Shown here: one piece after another, positions 9,788 through 34,006 of the stretch
Numbering within the stretch: position 1 is the stretch's first letter
Layout: each line of letters opens with the position of its first letter
Source of the DNA: a virus
UHGV virus genome: UHGV-0103780
Length of the DNA stretch: 49,301 bases
Strand: one strand, 5' to 3'
Translations under genes and position numbers: made by a program
Notes under the pieces: model-generated
Databases searched by the model: none
What the model saw: only the letters and a program-made list of their open reading frames with translations
What the model was told of the DNA's origin: nothing

Positions 9788-9809
9788 ATTCTACGAGTAG
9801 TCATTTGTT
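9788..9809 (-). promoter_or_regulatory. candidate late promoter (minus-strand sense AACAAATGACTA-N4-TAGAAT)
   Basis: Same motif and spacing recur at 20871-20892 and 41483-41504, each 25-35 bp upstream of the first ATG of a leftward structural operon. Confidence 0.5.
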
Positions 9810-9904
9810 CATTGAGTAGGAATATTGTTGTCTGGGGGGTAATCAGTGTAGGTGGAATGAGGGATATGATATGGTTATCACATAATCAGGTTGTTTTGAG
9901 TAAA

Positions 9905-9937
9905 ACAATAAAACGCCCTTTAATGGGCGTTTTTTTA
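9905..9937 (-). terminator. rho-independent terminator (bidirectional-looking)
   Basis: Hairpin CGCCC-tttaat-GGGCG flanked by an A-run and a T-run, just downstream of the sim-like operon. Confidence 0.6.
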
Positions 9938-9964
9938 AACTTAAATTGACTATCCTTTCAAATA

Positions 9965-10777
9965 CTATTTTAATTCTATGTAATTTTTAAATTCTCCCTC
10001 ATATTTATACATGATGCTATCAAATCCTTCCATTACATCAACGAATTGTTGTGAACATTCCGGCTTCCAAGGCGTACACTTACGAACCATATCCATTTTT
10101 TTCTTATCCTTCGTTGTATCGACTAAGGATAGGTACCCTATAAAATTCATCATCTGAACAGGATCTTGATTTGTGAATATATATTTGACGTTTTGCTTAG
10201 TAGGCGAAAAAGAATCAAAAGCAGGGAACATATATTCACCAGAAAAAGAGAGTGCAGCATCAATGACGTCTGTTGCAGGAGTGCAGTTGCTCAGAATTGG
10301 CACTAAGCTAAAATTAGCACCTGAGCACACTGCATATATATCATCCCCTTTTTTTAGTTTTAACAGAGAGTCTTGCTTTGAATCCAATATTTTCAATTTG
10401 ATATAATTTAGTGGCGTTGCATTTTCCCCTGGAGTAAATAACTCTACAATTGGTTTATTATTCACCATTCTTATGGATTTTATTTCACCATGCACAATTG
10501 GAATTGTGTTCCATTTTTCCTGAGCAGCAAATTCATTATCTTTAAAATCATTAACCAACTCAGATGGCAAATGATAACCAAATTGATTGTTCATTGCTTT
10601 CGAAGCAAATCCAGACAAATAGAATGCCCTTACTAAATCATAATCTTTCTTTGAGGTAGAAAGCCAATCTGGCAATTTATTATCAGCTATCGCGCTTCCA
10701 GCAAAAATAGCACAACAAAATGTTATTACATTAAATAATTTCATTTTCCATTCACTCATTAATCGGTTTAAACTCAC
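9965..10777 (-). CDS. simC: secreted protein, SimC-like superinfection-exclusion candidate, 270 aa
   Basis: N-terminal signal peptide (MKLFNVITFCCAIFAGSAIA); sits immediately upstream of the immI (c4-icd-ant) region as sim does in P1. True start may be the internal Met near 10744. Symbol is by position and size. Confidence 0.45.
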   Translation of the reverse strand: MSLNRLMSEWKMKLFNVITFCCAIFAGSAIADNKLPDWLSTSKKDYDLVRAFYLSGFASKAMNNQFGYHLPSELVNDFKDNEFAAQEKWNTIPIVHGEIKSIRMVNNKPIVELFTPGENATPLNYIKLKILDSKQDSLLKLKKGDDIYAVCSGANFSLVPILSNCTPATDVIDAALSFSGEYMFPAFDSFSPTKQNVKYIFTNQDPVQMMNFIGYLSLVDTTKDKKKMDMVRKCTPWKPECSQQFVDVMEGFDSIMYKYEGEFKNYIELK

Positions 10778-11087
10778 TAATTAATTCACCAAGACTATTT
10801 GGGTATGCTTTATAAATAACATACTCCGAAGAGCCATCTGAATATTGGTAAACCCCATAACAGACCAGTTTATTTATTCCTTTCTGAATAGTTTTTTGAT
10901 TATAAGAATCAACCACTGTTATTCCATATGACGATAATATTTCGTTATATTCTTCAATAAGAGCTTTTCTTGTTTCCACTGAATTACAATCTACCTTCGA
11001 AAAGTCAACTTCATCAGCAAAAACATTAAATGTTAAAAAGGAAAGCACTAAAAACAAACGAATCAGCATAAATCCACTCCTACGCAT
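10752..11087 (-). CDS. secreted protein (SimB-like position), 111 aa
   Basis: Signal peptide MLIRLFLVLSFLTFNVFA; upstream of and co-directional with the SimC-like gene. Confidence 0.45.
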   Translation of the reverse strand: MRRSGFMLIRLFLVLSFLTFNVFADEVDFSKVDCNSVETRKALIEEYNEILSSYGITVVDSYNQKTIQKGINKLVCYGVYQYSDGSSEYVIYKAYPNSLGELISEFKPINE

Positions 11088-11090
11088 GGA

Positions 11091-11222
11091 TTAATAGTCA
11101 TTGATCGCAAAGGCGTAAACTTGCCAAAGGTATTTCGTATAATCGGTACAAATCTCCTTTACGCTTGATGCTGCATTAACAGTCCCAGCCATAAATAATA
11201 ACGATAGTAATAGTTTTCTCAT
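11091..11222 (-). CDS. small secreted peptide (SimA-like position), 43 aa
   Basis: Manual read of the minus strand: MRKLLLSLLFMAGTVNAASSVKEICTDYTKYLWQVYAFAINDY; below the ORF-track size cutoff. Confidence 0.3.
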   Translation of the reverse strand: MRKLLLSLLFMAGTVNAASSVKEICTDYTKYLWQVYAFAINDY

Positions 11223-11318
11223 TATAACCTCACCTGCCTTATAACCCATTTAGGGTACATATTTTCGCCTTTAAAAAAAAGAGGTTATTAGATCCAACTG
11301 TGTATTTATTAAGCAGAT

Positions 11319-11335
11319 AATGCTCTAATAAATTT
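11319..11335 (+). promoter_or_regulatory. C1-repressor operator-like site (AATGCTCTAATAAATTT)
   Basis: 16/17 match to the recalled P1 C1 operator consensus ATTGCTCTAATAAATTT; upstream of c4-icd-ant. Confidence 0.7.
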
Positions 11336-11520
11336 GTATTTTTAAGTCACGAATGCTATCTTTTCGCATCATATTGACCTTTTAATCGTTCAGGCTTATA
11401 GTTCCGCCGTCGTAGCAAATTCTGCGACCGGGTTTAGCAGCCTGAATGATTGTGCGGACAGCCGCAGATATCCGATATTGCGGTATTTTTGTGTCCGTAA
11501 AACCGCGTTACGCCCAAATT

Positions 11521-11600
11521 ATGGTGGGGCGTGATGGGGAGGCTTCGGCCTGCTGGTTTCACAATCGCCAGTCTGCTAACCCCGTCACGTCCTGCCACCT
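11521..11600 (+). ncRNA. c4: c4-like antisense immunity RNA (boundaries approximate)
   Basis: Contains CACAATC (11560-11566) and CTGCTAA (11573-11579), each complementary to paired sites TTAGCAG/GATTGTG upstream (11434-11454) and downstream (11603-11638, just 5' of icd). Confidence 0.5.
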
Positions 11601-11649
11601 GTTTAGCAGCGGGTAGCAGGTTGTTAAACCTGATTGTGAGGCCGTAACT

Positions 11650-11871
11650 ATGGTTAATGCCAATCCTTGCGCACGCCCAGAATTCATCTGGCGTTTCTAT
11701 TCCTGTAAAAAACACCACTATCACTTCGTTATCGCAGCAACTGAAGACGAAGCACGCTCTCAATTGCCTGATGGCCCCTGCATTTTTACTGCCCGTTTTT
11801 CAACTAACTCGCGCAATTCACTTAGTTACTGGAGCCTCCCCTTCTCTGCCGACGTTCAGGGGGGTTTATGA
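11650..11871 (+). CDS. icd: Icd-like small protein, 73 aa
   Basis: Small ORF whose stop overlaps the ant ATG (ATGA at 11868-11871), downstream of the c4 target sites; the P1 immI arrangement. Confidence 0.6.
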   Translation: MVNANPCARPEFIWRFYSCKKHHYHFVIAATEDEARSQLPDGPCIFTARFSTNSRNSLSYWSLPFSADVQGGL

Positions 11872-12911
11872 AAAAACCTCTCGTCACCCGTAATGACATA
11901 GCCGAAGCGATCGCCCTGCATACTGCCTGTATACCGACACGGGAGATCCCCGGCGCAATTGCCAACTATTTCATGATAACCAGGCGTTTTTATACCCGAA
12001 CAGATAAGGCTGTGATCAACAGGCTACTGATAGCCGAGATCAGGGATTATTTGATTGAACAAGGACGTCTACGTTACGCAACGGTGGCAGCAGAAATGAG
12101 AAAGGAGGCACATAGAATGACCAGTAATAATTTGAATGTTAAAAAACCAGCACCTGTTGCTTCAGCAACGCCAGCACCAGCCGTGAATGTCATCCCCACC
12201 ACCGGAGACACAATCGACAGCCTGACACTGTTAAAGATGGTCAATGAAGCGCGTAAGTTATGTGGGGAACCAGAGGTTCGGAACAACAAATTCATCGAAA
12301 AAATACTCGACGAATTAGAAGGTGAGGACGGTTACACAAAAAGTGCAACCGTGCCGCCAGGTGGCGGTACGCCTATGGTTGTCATAACCATGACCTACAA
12401 ACAAGCCCTGCGAGTCGCCGCGCGCGAATCGAAAGCGGTCCGCCGTTCGCTGATCGACAAACTGGAAGAATTGCAGCAGGCAAACTCCCCTACCCCATCG
12501 ATCCCCCAAACATTACCAGAAGCCCTACGCCTGGCTGCCGAGTTGGCAGAACAGAAATTGCAGCTGGAACAACAGCTGGTGGCCGCAGCCCCTAAAGTCG
12601 ATTTTGCCGACCGGGTATCAGTGGCTAATGGAATCCTGATCGGGAACTTTGCAAAGGTCGTTGGACTTAAGCAAAACGCCCTTTTCTCATGGTTGCGCCA
12701 GAACGGCATTCTCATGGCTTTTGGTGCGCGCAAAAACGTACCGCGCCAGCAGTACATTAACGCCGGGTATTTCACGGTGAAAGAAGTGGTGCTGGATGAT
12801 GAAAATGGCTACCAGATACGGCTGACGCCCCAATTAACGGGTAAAGGCCAGCAGTGGTTAACTCGCAAGCTACTTGATGCTGGTTTGTTAAAACCAGTAG
12901 CAATAGGTTAA
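11868..12911 (+). CDS. ant: antirepressor Ant1-like (in-frame Ant2 start likely), 347 aa
   Basis: Translationally coupled to icd; C-terminal ~130 aa (LPEALRLAAELAEQK...GKGQQWLTRKLLDAG) shared with the KilA-like protein downstream. Confidence 0.7.
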   Translation: MKKPLVTRNDIAEAIALHTACIPTREIPGAIANYFMITRRFYTRTDKAVINRLLIAEIRDYLIEQGRLRYATVAAEMRKEAHRMTSNNLNVKKPAPVASATPAPAVNVIPTTGDTIDSLTLLKMVNEARKLCGEPEVRNNKFIEKILDELEGEDGYTKSATVPPGGGTPMVVITMTYKQALRVAARESKAVRRSLIDKLEELQQANSPTPSIPQTLPEALRLAAELAEQKLQLEQQLVAAAPKVDFADRVSVANGILIGNFAKVVGLKQNALFSWLRQNGILMAFGARKNVPRQQYINAGYFTVKEVVLDDENGYQIRLTPQLTGKGQQWLTRKLLDAGLLKPVAIG

Positions 12912-14750: not shown

Positions 14751-14800
14751 TAGATTGCTCTAATCTGGAGTCACCTGGCGTTTTCAGTTTGAGGTCGGAG

Positions 14801-15046
14801 ATGCAATCTGATTTTTTACAGTTAGCGATCGCTTTTGCAGGATATGTTTGTATTGGCTTCTGTGTATACATGATCAGCCGAAAAATGCTTGTCGATATCG
14901 ACCGCAAAGAACGAGCAGAGGAGATCTTAGTATGGATTTTCTTTGGCGCGGTCTGGCCATTAGGGATCATGTTTGCTGCAACATTTCTTCTGATGTGGAT
15001 ATTCACCCTTCCAGGTGATTTCTATAGAAAAAAAGCCAGACATTGA
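14801..15046 (+). CDS. small membrane protein (two predicted TM helices), about 81 aa
   Basis: ATG at 14801 preceded by GGAG; hydrophobic segments LAIAFAGYVCIGFCVYMI and ILVWIFFGAVWPLGIMFAATFLLMWIF. ORF track gives a longer 14720 start that overlaps repL. Confidence 0.4.
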   Translation: MQSDFLQLAIAFAGYVCIGFCVYMISRKMLVDIDRKERAEEILVWIFFGAVWPLGIMFAATFLLMWIFTLPGDFYRKKARH

Positions 15047-15227
15047 TACAATCGTTGCGGGTGCTTGAGGCTATCTGCTTCAGGCATTACCCGAAAAGCA
15101 GATAGAAGAAAGCCCCAGATAACATTACGCGTCCTGCAAGACGCTTAACATTAATCTGAGGCCATATCTATGCTTAGCATACGTAGATTAGCCTCTTACC
15201 GACCAAAAGGTCAAGGAGAAGCAGGCT

Positions 15228-15383
15228 ATGAAGCAGCAAAAAGCGATGTTAATCGCTCTGATCGTCATCTGTTTAACCGTCATTGTGACGGCACTGGTAA
15301 CGAGGAAAGACCTCTGCGAGGTACGAATCCGAACCGGCCAGACGGAGGTCACTGTCTTCACAGCCTACGAATCTGAAAGGTAA
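15228..15383 (+). CDS. hok: Hok/Gef-family type I toxin, 51 aa
   Basis: Manual read MKQQKAMLIALIVICLTVIVTALVTRKDLCEVRIRTGQTEVTVFTAYESER, a close match to recalled Hok/Gef sequences; overlapped by the mok-like frame 15170..15376 from the ORF track. Confidence 0.8.
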   Translation: MKQQKAMLIALIVICLTVIVTALVTRKDLCEVRIRTGQTEVTVFTAYESER

Positions 15384-15463
15384 GAGACCTGGCGGGGAGA
15401 GATCCTCGCCACTCTTCGTGTGTCAGGTATCCTCAATGCACCCTTTCCTCTCCAAATAAAAAA

Positions 15464-15479
15464 GCTCCCGAAGGAGCTT
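15464..15479. terminator. hairpin terminator between the convergent hok and tube-fold genes
   Basis: AGCTCC-cgaa-GGAGCT with an A-run upstream and T-run downstream. Confidence 0.6.
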
Positions 15480-15499
15480 TAAAATACAAGGGATGACTC

Positions 15500-16009
15500 T
15501 TAATCCCACTCAATCCAGTTGTAGACGATACGAAGTGACGGGCGCACAGCGGCAGTCACATCTTCGGTACTAAAGTCGATTGCATCACTGTAGATTTTGC
15601 AGTCCAACATTTCAATTGTTGTAGCAGCTTTTGTCACAGCGTTAACCCCGGAAGATTTGGATTCAGGGGTAGCAGCCATCGTGATATCAACATAGTCCTT
15701 CGCCGCAATGCGATCCTTGATGAACTGAAGAATATCGCCTTCGATAGTCTCCACGCACTGGACCTGGATTTCCCCAGAGTTTCGAATTGGTCCGTGCTGG
15801 TTGAACTTCACACCATTCGGACCATAGTCCTCCACATCCTCGCGGGTCATTTCAGGAATTTGCGACGTGCGAACCAGTACGCTGATATCTTCATGGCCTG
15901 CAAAAGTGAGCTGGAATTCAGAAGATACCAGTCGTTCGCCTTTGGCCGCGTTGGCAGTATAGCGGCCCTTAATAAATTTACGGTTTCCCTTAGTGTTATT
16001 GTGCCCCAT
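15500..16009 (-). CDS. tail tube-fold protein (T4 gp19-like), 169 aa
   Basis: Size, N-terminal ...ERLVSSEFQLTFAG and C-terminal ...LRIVYNWIEWD resemble the tail tube family as recalled; downstream of the sheath gene. Confidence 0.45.
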   Translation of the reverse strand: MGHNNTKGNRKFIKGRYTANAAKGERLVSSEFQLTFAGHEDISVLVRTSQIPEMTREDVEDYGPNGVKFNQHGPIRNSGEIQVQCVETIEGDILQFIKDRIAAKDYVDITMAATPESKSSGVNAVTKAATTIEMLDCKIYSDAIDFSTEDVTAAVRPSLRIVYNWIEWD

Positions 16010-16020
16010 ATAAAATCCTT

Positions 16021-16602
16021 TTACTGGAACGCCCGAACAATATCGGAGCTGTTATATATCGAAGAACCGGTCAACTGGAGGTTGACGGTGTTTTTCAGGA
16101 AATGCCCATTGCTGTCCCTGGGCGCATCGAGATCGAAACTTATGTCCTGGATAGCGACATCAATGATGTTGATCCGGCGACCAATGTTTAGCGTCACGCG
16201 CTCCGGGATTCGACCACCAATACTGGCATCTTTAAGTTCCGGGCTAATCATCGCTGACAATGCGGCGATAGCTCCTGAAACCTCCGTGAATGGGTCAAAC
16301 AAAGCGATGAAAGTTACTGGCAGCGTGAAAGTCGGCGGTGTTCCCCCTTCCCAAACCATTAAGCTGTTCCAACGGGCAACCGACGTTGTTTCAGTACCAA
16401 CCTGCGCAAAACCACTGAAGGCACCAGCAACAGATCCCATGGACATACCGGTAAACGGCGCTTCCCAATTCTGGGCCATGTTCATTGCCGCCCCCTGGCT
16501 GATATATCCGGTAACCTGGTACTGAGAGTTCGTTAAAGTAACTTTCAGAAATGGCGATACACCGTCAGCCTGGCTGTAAACCCCATAAGGAATAGGTGCC
16601 AT
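16021..16602 (-). CDS. hypothetical tail/baseplate structural protein, 193 aa
   Basis: Co-directional late gene between the sheath and tube-fold genes. Confidence 0.5.
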   Translation of the reverse strand: MAPIPYGVYSQADGVSPFLKVTLTNSQYQVTGYISQGAAMNMAQNWEAPFTGMSMGSVAGAFSGFAQVGTETTSVARWNSLMVWEGGTPPTFTLPVTFIALFDPFTEVSGAIAALSAMISPELKDASIGGRIPERVTLNIGRRINIIDVAIQDISFDLDAPRDSNGHFLKNTVNLQLTGSSIYNSSDIVRAFQ

Positions 16603-32149: not shown

Positions 32150-32225
32150 GATGGTGTAGCTCAGCGGTTAGAGCGGTTGACTGTTAATCAACGGGTCGAT
32201 GGTTCAAATCCATCCACCATCGCCA
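32150..32225 (+). tRNA. tRNA-Asn (anticodon GTT)
   Basis: Manual cloverleaf: acceptor GATGGTG/CACCATC, anticodon loop CTGTTAA, T-loop TTCAAAT, encoded CCA; 76 nt. Confidence 0.85.
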
Positions 32226-32227
32226 AT

Positions 32228-32303
32228 GCCGGTTTAGCTCAGTTGGTAGAGCGCCTGCCTTGTAAGCAGGATGTCAGCGGTTCGAGTCCGTTAATCGGCA
32301 CCA
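32228..32303 (+). tRNA. tRNA-Thr (anticodon TGT)
   Basis: Manual cloverleaf: acceptor GCCGGTT/AATCGGC, anticodon loop CTTGTAA, T-loop TTCGAGT, encoded CCA; starts 2 nt after tRNA-Asn. Confidence 0.85.
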
Positions 32304-33930: not shown

Positions 33931-34006
33931 GGCCCTTTAGCTCAGTGGTTAGAGCTGGCGACTCATAATCGCACGGTCACCGGTTCAAGTCCGGTAGGGG
34001 CCACCA
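33931..34006 (+). tRNA. tRNA with CAT anticodon, tRNA-Ile2 (lysidine) type
   Basis: Manual cloverleaf: acceptor GGCCCTT/AGGGGCC, anticodon loop CTCATAA, T-loop TTCAAGT, encoded CCA; close to E. coli tRNA-Ile2 as recalled. Confidence 0.8.

Follow-up and report, generated by a model that had tools for sequence, protein, structure and literature searches.

The immI locus of a P1-group phage-plasmid segment: a c4 antisense RNA module with predicted P7-type specificity

Organization of the immI locus

The analysed sequence, called the window here, is a stretch of 49,301 nucleotides from the virus genome UHGV-0103780. The first 25 kb of the window shares 98.4% identity with Ro157c2YLVW across 93% of its length, and other records named "Punavirus P1" are similarly close to this part; judged from these similarities, the window is a segment of a P1-group phage-plasmid. 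The sequence around the immI locus is mosaic. The simC, simB and simA genes (9800-11299) are 98.7-100% identical to those of P1 and about 60% identical to P7 and Ro157c2, and P7 itself has upf50.0/upf50.5 upstream of the operator where the window has the P1-type simABC. P1-like sequence gives way to P7-like sequence at the C1 operator, at about 11300-11320. From the operator on, the window is P7-like, with 98-100% identity over the c4-icd module and 100% identity over 11450-11599. When GenBank phages were compared over longer intervals, 11321-11900 was 99.3% identical to P7, and 11250-11900 was 96.0% identical to P1. In the middle of ant1 (12200-12500), the window diverges from both phages, with just 88-90% identity to P1 and 74-83% to P7.

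The positions of the features were obtained by carrying over the annotations of P1 and P7 through alignment A1. The features of the locus are the following.

11319-11335 (+): C1 repressor operator Op51 / Oc4, AATGCTCTAATAAATTT, placed by the P1 and P7 annotations
11334-11362 (+): promoter P51a (P2c4), which the operator overlaps, placed by the P1 annotation (window coordinate = L002 + 9749)
11374-11402 (+): promoter P51b (P1c4), TTGACC-17 nt-TATAGT, 10 of 12 positions in the sigma-70 scan
11396-11448 (+): c4-a1b1 structured leader with two hairpins, a1 in the second loop (Rfam RF03163)
11434-11440 (+): a1, UUAGCAG, complement of a'; labelled in P1 'putative a1 target site for C4 RNA'
11448-11454 (+): b1, GAUUGUG, complement of b'; P1 annotates an 8-nt site corresponding to 11448-11455
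11461-11492 (+): weak terminator-like hairpin followed by UAUUUUUGU, between b1 and c4, at the 3' end of an isrK-like match
11523-11599 (+): mature 77-nt c4 antisense RNA of predicted P7 specificity, equal to the P7 c4 misc_RNA and matched by Rfam C4
11560-11566 (+): b', CACAAUC, in a c4 hairpin loop (RNA nt 38-44), unpaired in the fold, complement of b1 and b2
11573-11579 (+): a', CUGCUAA, in a single-stranded joint of c4 (RNA nt 51-57), unpaired in the fold, complement of a1 and a2
11603-11609 (+): a2, UUAGCAG, target in the icd-ant leader; in P1 'target site a2 ... repression of icd ant translation'
11632-11638 (+): b2, GAUUGUG, from the P1 annotation, where the site has 8 nt (to 11639)
11638-11641 (+): icd Shine-Dalgarno sequence GAGG, overlapping b2; the icd ATG at 11650 follows GAGG by 8 nt
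11650-11871 (+): icd, 73-aa cell-division inhibitor, first gene under c4 control (ORF; P1 and P7 annotations)
11868-12911 (+): ant1, antirepressor of 347 aa (ORF; P1 and P7 annotations)
12117 (+): in-frame start of ant2, equal to Met84 of Ant1, transferred from P1 (L002 2367 + 9750)

The sequence of operator Op51 is the same in P1, P7 and the window. The generic promoter scan made no call at P51a, and its call at P51b coincides with the P1c4 promoter annotated in P1. Among the gene products, Icd matches the NCBIfam family phage_ICD_like with 52.3 bits (cut-off 25), and Ant1, KilA and RepL, which have no NCBIfam family, take their identities from the P1 and P7 annotations. The antirepressor function of ant1 is assumed here, because the centre of the gene (12200-12500) differs from both P1 and P7. 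The start of ant1 overlaps the stop of icd in ATGA, and this arrangement suggests translational coupling of the two genes.

Two further groups of features were observed elsewhere in the window. The Rfam sok model (hok/sok antitoxin RNA) matched 15059-15233 on the + strand with 114.9 bits against a cut-off of 59, at a site after repL where P1 has rlfA/rlfB. Over 14760-16200, the surrounding sequence shares 99.5-99.9% identity with phi456, MH422554 (annotated 'MokW') and Ro157c2YLVW, and the region is a plasmid-addiction module that only some P1-like elements carry. Three tRNA genes, as expected for a P1-group genome, lie on the + strand at 32150-32222, 32228-32300 and 33931-34003 (74.5, 72.9 and 64.7 bits, respectively).

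Direct reading of the sequence places TTAGCAG at 11434-11440 and 11603-11609 and GATTGTG at 11448-11454 and 11632-11638, all on the + strand. Between the two target pairs lie CACAATC (11560-11566) and CTGCTAA (11573-11579), which are the exact reverse complements of these heptamers. The coordinates given by an earlier sequence-only reading of this DNA are exact, and the c4 region proposed there (11521-11600) is at most 2 nt off the 77-nt c4 obtained by transfer of the P1 and P7 annotations.

The c4 RNA and the specificity of its pairing elements

The Rfam C4 model (RF01695) matched 11517-11602 on the + strand over its full length (model positions 1-87 of 87), with 69.6 bits (gathering score 45), and this was the only C4 match of the Rfam scan in the whole window. 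The c4 of the window is 100% identical to the annotated c4 misc_RNA of P7; the family match and this identity agree on the position of c4, which maps nowhere else in the window. When the 77-mer was folded, the minimum-energy structure was the same as the centroid structure and had an energy of -44.9 kcal/mol, compared with -27.7 ± 3.0 kcal/mol in shuffled controls (z = -5.7). The predicted fold consists of a long closing helix and two internal hairpins; b' is held in a 9-nt loop, and a' fills the whole of a 7-nt unpaired joint. The recognition elements are complementary to a downstream site that overlaps the ribosome-binding site (a2/b2, at icd), which is one of the properties by which membership of C4 is judged.

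Duplex energies were calculated for isolated single-stranded elements against the leaders and were summed per target pair. At this element level, the cognate duplexes had -15.1 kcal/mol for a1b1 and -18.5 kcal/mol for a2b2, and the crossed duplexes (c4 of the window with P1 or D6 targets, and P1 or D6 c4 with the targets of the window) ranged from -6.9 to -13.5 kcal/mol. When full-length RNAs were used, c4 was wholly unfolded in the predicted duplexes and the cognate and non-cognate energies were similar; helix-constrained cofolding, a method that cannot represent the pairing of a loop with an external strand, returned about 0 kcal/mol for all pairs.

A third 'a' site was also considered in the spacer between a2 and b2, where UAGCAG (11615-11620, +) can pair with a P7-type a' at -8.5 kcal/mol. 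This near-copy of a2 was rejected on covariation: it also occurs in P1, which has a different a', and its variation does not follow the a allele. UAGCAG at this position is probably no target of c4.

The window agrees with P7 at every one of the six pairing elements, both in alignment A1 and by direct extraction. In P1, the target elements are UUGACAG and GUUAGUG with CACUAAC and CUGUCAA in c4, and in D6 they are UUGACAG and ACUUACG with CGUAAGU and CUGUCAA in c4, and the base differences of both P1 and D6 are matched across all three copies. The window thus has the combination that defines the P7 immI class (a' CUGCUAA and b' CACAAUC with matching targets), and each of its elements has 2 mismatches to the combination that defines the P1 immI class (a' CUGUCAA and b' CACUAAC with matching targets). 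Assigned by these sequences, the element in the window is of the P7 immI class; homoimmunity with P7 at immI, and heteroimmunity with P1, would be expected. Comparison with P1 c4, which the sequence-only reading had suggested, held in part: the architecture and the RNA scaffold are the same as in P1, but the specificity is that of P7. Matched differences in a and b are the classical basis of P1/P7 heteroimmunity.

To see how the elements vary, we collected IMG/VR loci, 80 by way of Icd and at least 120 with a c4 DNA pattern, and added P1, P7, Ro157c2 and D6. Removal of duplicates left 90 distinct segments, and all six elements were readable in 86. The segments contain at least two a alleles (TTAGCAG and TTGACAG) and at least seven b alleles (GATTGTG, GTTAGTG, ACTTACG, ACGAATG, ACTTGTG, GTACATG and GTTCAAG), and 12 complete a/b combinations occur out of 14 possible. 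The commonest of them is the P7 type of the window (21 of the 90 distinct segments). Of the 86 loci with six readable elements, 85 had perfect Watson-Crick complementarity in all three copies, which shows that the heptamers, whose lack of conservation in relatives had been named as a possible refutation, are kept or changed together. The combination pattern implies repeated concerted change, with at least six matched substitutions for every switch of specificity, and it suggests that enterobacterial phage-plasmids contain more specificity classes than the two textbook ones. If this is true, there would be many mutually heteroimmune immI classes beyond P1 and P7. No G-U intermediates were seen among the pairs of the relatives, so that coordinated change alone cannot separate RNA pairing from a repeated double-stranded DNA site; the RNA nature of c4 rests on the covariance-model matches, the fold and published experiments.

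The sole mismatch among these loci was found in a 4.9-kb contig, IMGVR_UViG_2565956613_000015 (L018 / L125), where b2 is GTTAGTG and b1/b' are ACGAATG/CATTCGT. The locus was considered as a natural c4-escape variant or recombinant, and this was rejected in favour of an assembly chimera as the likelier origin: the contig ends beside c4, and a second contig of the same genome (L156) likewise ends at c4. Another observation concerns the 97-kb P1-like contig IMGVR_UViG_2703718869_000013 (L027, L076, L099 and L134), where at least two c4 modules that differ in specificity are present: TTGACAG/ACTTGTG, the P1 type, and TTAGCAG/GTACATG; a D6-like plasmid likewise has a second c4-icd region (PMC6799933). 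Beyond phage collections, the region is present in 579 PLSDB plasmids, of which 185 have an identity of at least 99%.

Other explanations of the three copies were weighed against a P7-type antisense RNA. Taken singly, the heptamers occur in the window at chance frequency (7 compared with 5.9 expected, and 8 compared with 7.8 expected), as would be the case if the matches were chance intergenic repeats without function. However, the composite TTAGCAG-N(5-30)-GATTGTG occurs three times in the window, twice on the + strand and once on the - strand, with every copy at the c4 locus within 205 bp, and it occurred 0 times in 100 dinucleotide-preserving shuffles. The elements are also the annotated sites of P1 and P7, and they change in step over the 12 combinations. 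The arrangement of the heptamer pairs is confirmed as real and chance is excluded, leaving functionless repeats a negligible probability. The copies are always exact in identity or complement, without G-U pairs, and this would equally suit double-stranded DNA sites for a protein, one of them inverted, with 'c4' encoding a protein repressor. Short ORFs do overlap c4, at 11446-11616 (56 aa) and 11531-11647 (38 aa), and the record X15639 once listed 'c4: CDS'. These ORFs are without family support, however, and the structured-RNA covariance model scores well over its threshold, with a fold far more stable than its shuffled controls that places the elements exactly in its loops. In P1 and P7, frameshift or stop mutations in the ORFs overlapping c4 reportedly leave repression intact when the RNA fold is preserved. 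The c4 repressors were shown to be RNAs (Citron & Schuster 1990, cited in PMC12197685 and PMC8198154), and we consider DNA sites with a protein repressor very improbable. It is also hardly credible that the immunity specificity is that of P1 and not of P7. The flanking sim genes are indeed of P1 type with 98.7-100% identity, and Ant1 has 347 aa as in P1 (1044 nt, compared with 1047 nt in P7), but the six elements are those of P7, each two positions off P1, and the predicted cross-pairing with the P1 targets is 5-7 kcal/mol weaker.

The a1/b1 leader and its likeness to isrK

The Rfam model of the c4-a1b1 leader (RF03163) matched 11396-11448 on the + strand at full length with 55.5 bits, compared with a gathering score of 46.7. 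The leader is predicted to fold into hairpins at 11409-11428 and 11429-11444, with b1 immediately 3' of the a1 hairpin, and this layout is the one described in the PMC2864571 supplement, where a1 is placed within a conserved two-hairpin motif. Further downstream, a hairpin at 11461-11484 of about -8.9 kcal/mol has a large loop and is followed by the U-run UAUUUUUGU. The generic terminator scan, which has a loop limit of 8 nt, missed 11461-11492, and its sole call (11677-11691) is a chance-level hairpin inside icd. The terminator-like hairpin is kept in all relatives among the 90 distinct segments.

When the Rfam scan was run with relaxed thresholds, the model of the Hfq-binding sRNA isrK (RF01394) matched 11409-11490 on the + strand at full length, with 43.7 bits (gathering score 50) and E = 3e-8, and this isrK-like match begins at the transcription start expected from P51b. 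The match differs from the isrK model in that it stays below the gathering score, and its terminator loop is 12 nt larger where the model has 3. Sub-threshold isrK matches were also found at the homologous position in P1 (35.1 bits) and D6 (46.5 bits). In ST64B (L209 1108-1296), Stx2a_1447 (L210 1137-1325) and an ECO95 fragment (L208 514-709), isrK lies about 25 nt upstream of C4 in tandem, with both above cut-off. In Rfam, isrK is outside the C4 clan. We regard the relation of the window to isrK as a resemblance and a probable homology, judged from these model matches, and not as curated membership. In two of the tandem-bearing genomes, the annotated CDS spans both the isrK and C4 matches (sb41 of ST64B, L209 754-1911; the 'antirepressor' of Stx2a_1447, L210 777-1928), and the starts of these antirepressor CDSs are probably over-extended across the non-coding leader.

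The sequence-only reading had described two sets of paired target sites. The downstream set holds, since a2/b2 is the established repression site; the upstream set has a different standing, since a1/b1 is called 'putative' in the P1 record and has been proposed as a competitor. If a1/b1 were nevertheless a second true repression target, its pairing with c4 could serve autoregulation or attenuation of its own operon at the 11461-11492 hairpin. The complementarity of a1/b1 to c4 is as perfect as that of a2/b2 and co-changes in relatives, a terminator-like hairpin is conserved after b1, and in P4 the action of CI RNA on the upstream seqA causes termination (PMC4825925). On the other side, the large-looped hairpin has little stability (about -8.9 kcal/mol), and the predicted pairing at a1b1 (-15.1 kcal/mol) is below the -18.5 kcal/mol at a2b2. 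The P1 record goes no further than 'putative', the short IsrK RNA of Gifsy-1 activates downstream translation (PMC4825925), and the published proposal, in the PMC2864571 supplement, is a competition in which a1/b1 frees a2/b2. We therefore regard a second repression target as unlikely, and a competing site for c4 as the most likely role of a1/b1.

Proposed regulation of the locus and comparison with known systems

We consider it very likely that the locus is the immI module of a P1-group phage-plasmid with P7-type c4 specificity, in which c4 blocks icd-ant. The analysis itself establishes the sequence elements and their complementarity, their exposure in the predicted fold, the overlap with the ribosome-binding site, the family membership, the identity to P7 and the coordinated change among relatives, and no part of the sequence speaks against this reading. 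Processing, trans action, the translational block, the polarity on ant and the immunity phenotype are taken here from the literature. Transcription would start from P51a and P51b, both under C1 control, and continue across the a1/b1 leader into c4, icd and ant1/ant2. From this operon transcript, the 77-nt c4 (11523-11599) would then be cut out; identity with P7, together with Hartmann et al. 1995, points to 5' processing by RNase P and to a promoter common to c4 and its target. The predicted fold would expose b' in the hairpin loop and a' in the single-stranded joint, and in trans a' would pair with a2 (11603-11609) and b' with b2 (11632-11638). Ribosomes would be barred from the icd start by c4 bound to b2, because b2 runs into the icd Shine-Dalgarno sequence. 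Since ant1 would depend on icd translation, no antirepressor would be made and C1 repression, that is, lysogeny, would hold. The translational block on icd reportedly leads to Rho-dependent loss of ant transcription. Pairing would need both 7-nt elements, and therefore two short sequences would set the immunity specificity. The upstream a1/b1 would most likely act as a competing c4 site and not as a second site of repression.

These steps follow published work on P1 and P7. The c4 repressors of both phages are trans-acting 77-nt antisense RNAs according to Citron & Schuster 1990, as summarised in PMC12197685 and PMC8198154, and the same papers state that c4 acts on the ant mRNA around the ribosome-binding site through loop-exposed complements, which explains P1/P7 heteroimmunity. 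That c4 pairs with the icd-ant leader and blocks its translation, as the sequence-only reading had it, is thus the published mechanism. Full repression of ant needs both C1 at the operator and c4 (PMC8198154), and the c4 precursor is a substrate of RNase P (Hartmann et al. 1995, listed in PMC2190699). The PMC2864571 supplement further states that a' and b' are able to base-pair at either set, a1/b1 or a2/b2, and that a1/b1 is a proposed competitor permitting ant expression. The c4 antisense switch is already known from textbooks, and the locus brings no new mechanism; the allele survey and the link to IsrK are modest by-products that could be new. The annotation itself is settled, with a P7-type secondary immunity (immI) beside P1-type superinfection-exclusion genes (sim), and the types of immI and sim predict which related phages are excluded or tolerated. 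The c4 system is a classic case of immunity specificity determined by two 7-nt RNA elements. The further specificity classes suggested by the survey bear on the co-residence and competition of resistance-carrying P1-like plasmids.

Among known systems, P7 is the closest (AF503408; RF01695, RF03163), being 98-100% identical from the operator to mid-ant1 with identical c4 and elements, and it shares the order of operator, P51a/P51b, a1 b1, c4, a2 b2, icd, ant1/2 and kilA. P1 (AF234172) has the same architecture and c4 scaffold, with 96% identity over the region and sim, icd, kilA and repL in common, but its a is UUGACAG compared with UUAGCAG in the window and its b is GUUAGUG compared with GAUUGUG. 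More distant is P4, where CI is a processed antisense RNA complementary to seqA and seqC, up- and downstream in its own transcript, as c4 is in the window (PMC4825925). Compared by description, the outcomes differ: in P4 the replication genes undergo premature transcription termination, and the main documented effect of c4 is a translational block at the icd ribosome-binding site.

The IsrK locus of the Salmonella prophage Gifsy-1 resembles the window in several respects. In Gifsy-1, either a terminated 77-nt IsrK sRNA or a read-through isrK-orf45-anrP mRNA is made, STnc1160 is a processed RNA of about 80 nt complementary to IsrK, and a small ORF is translationally coupled to the antirepressor (PMC4825925). 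IsrK is read as an activator in that paper and likened to seqA/CI of P4, and P1 c4 is unmentioned there (PMC4825925). As in the window, a promoter-proximal two-hairpin RNA thus complements a processed RNA of about 80 nt encoded downstream, and a terminator-like hairpin is followed by a small ORF coupled to the antirepressor. By this resemblance, the a1/b1 leader looks like a P1-group version of the IsrK module, and the likeness fits the proposal of competition by a1/b1. No short terminated a1/b1 RNA of P1 or P7 is documented in the accessible literature. That immI specificity is a two-part combinatorial code and that the a1/b1 leader is the counterpart of IsrK is, when both are taken jointly, a tentative proposal and rather improbable as a whole. 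If it is true, elements of the P1/P7 type may produce a short a1/b1 RNA by which c4 is titrated and icd-ant is turned on, and the systems of P1 c4, P4 CI/seqA and IsrK/STnc1160 would be unified.
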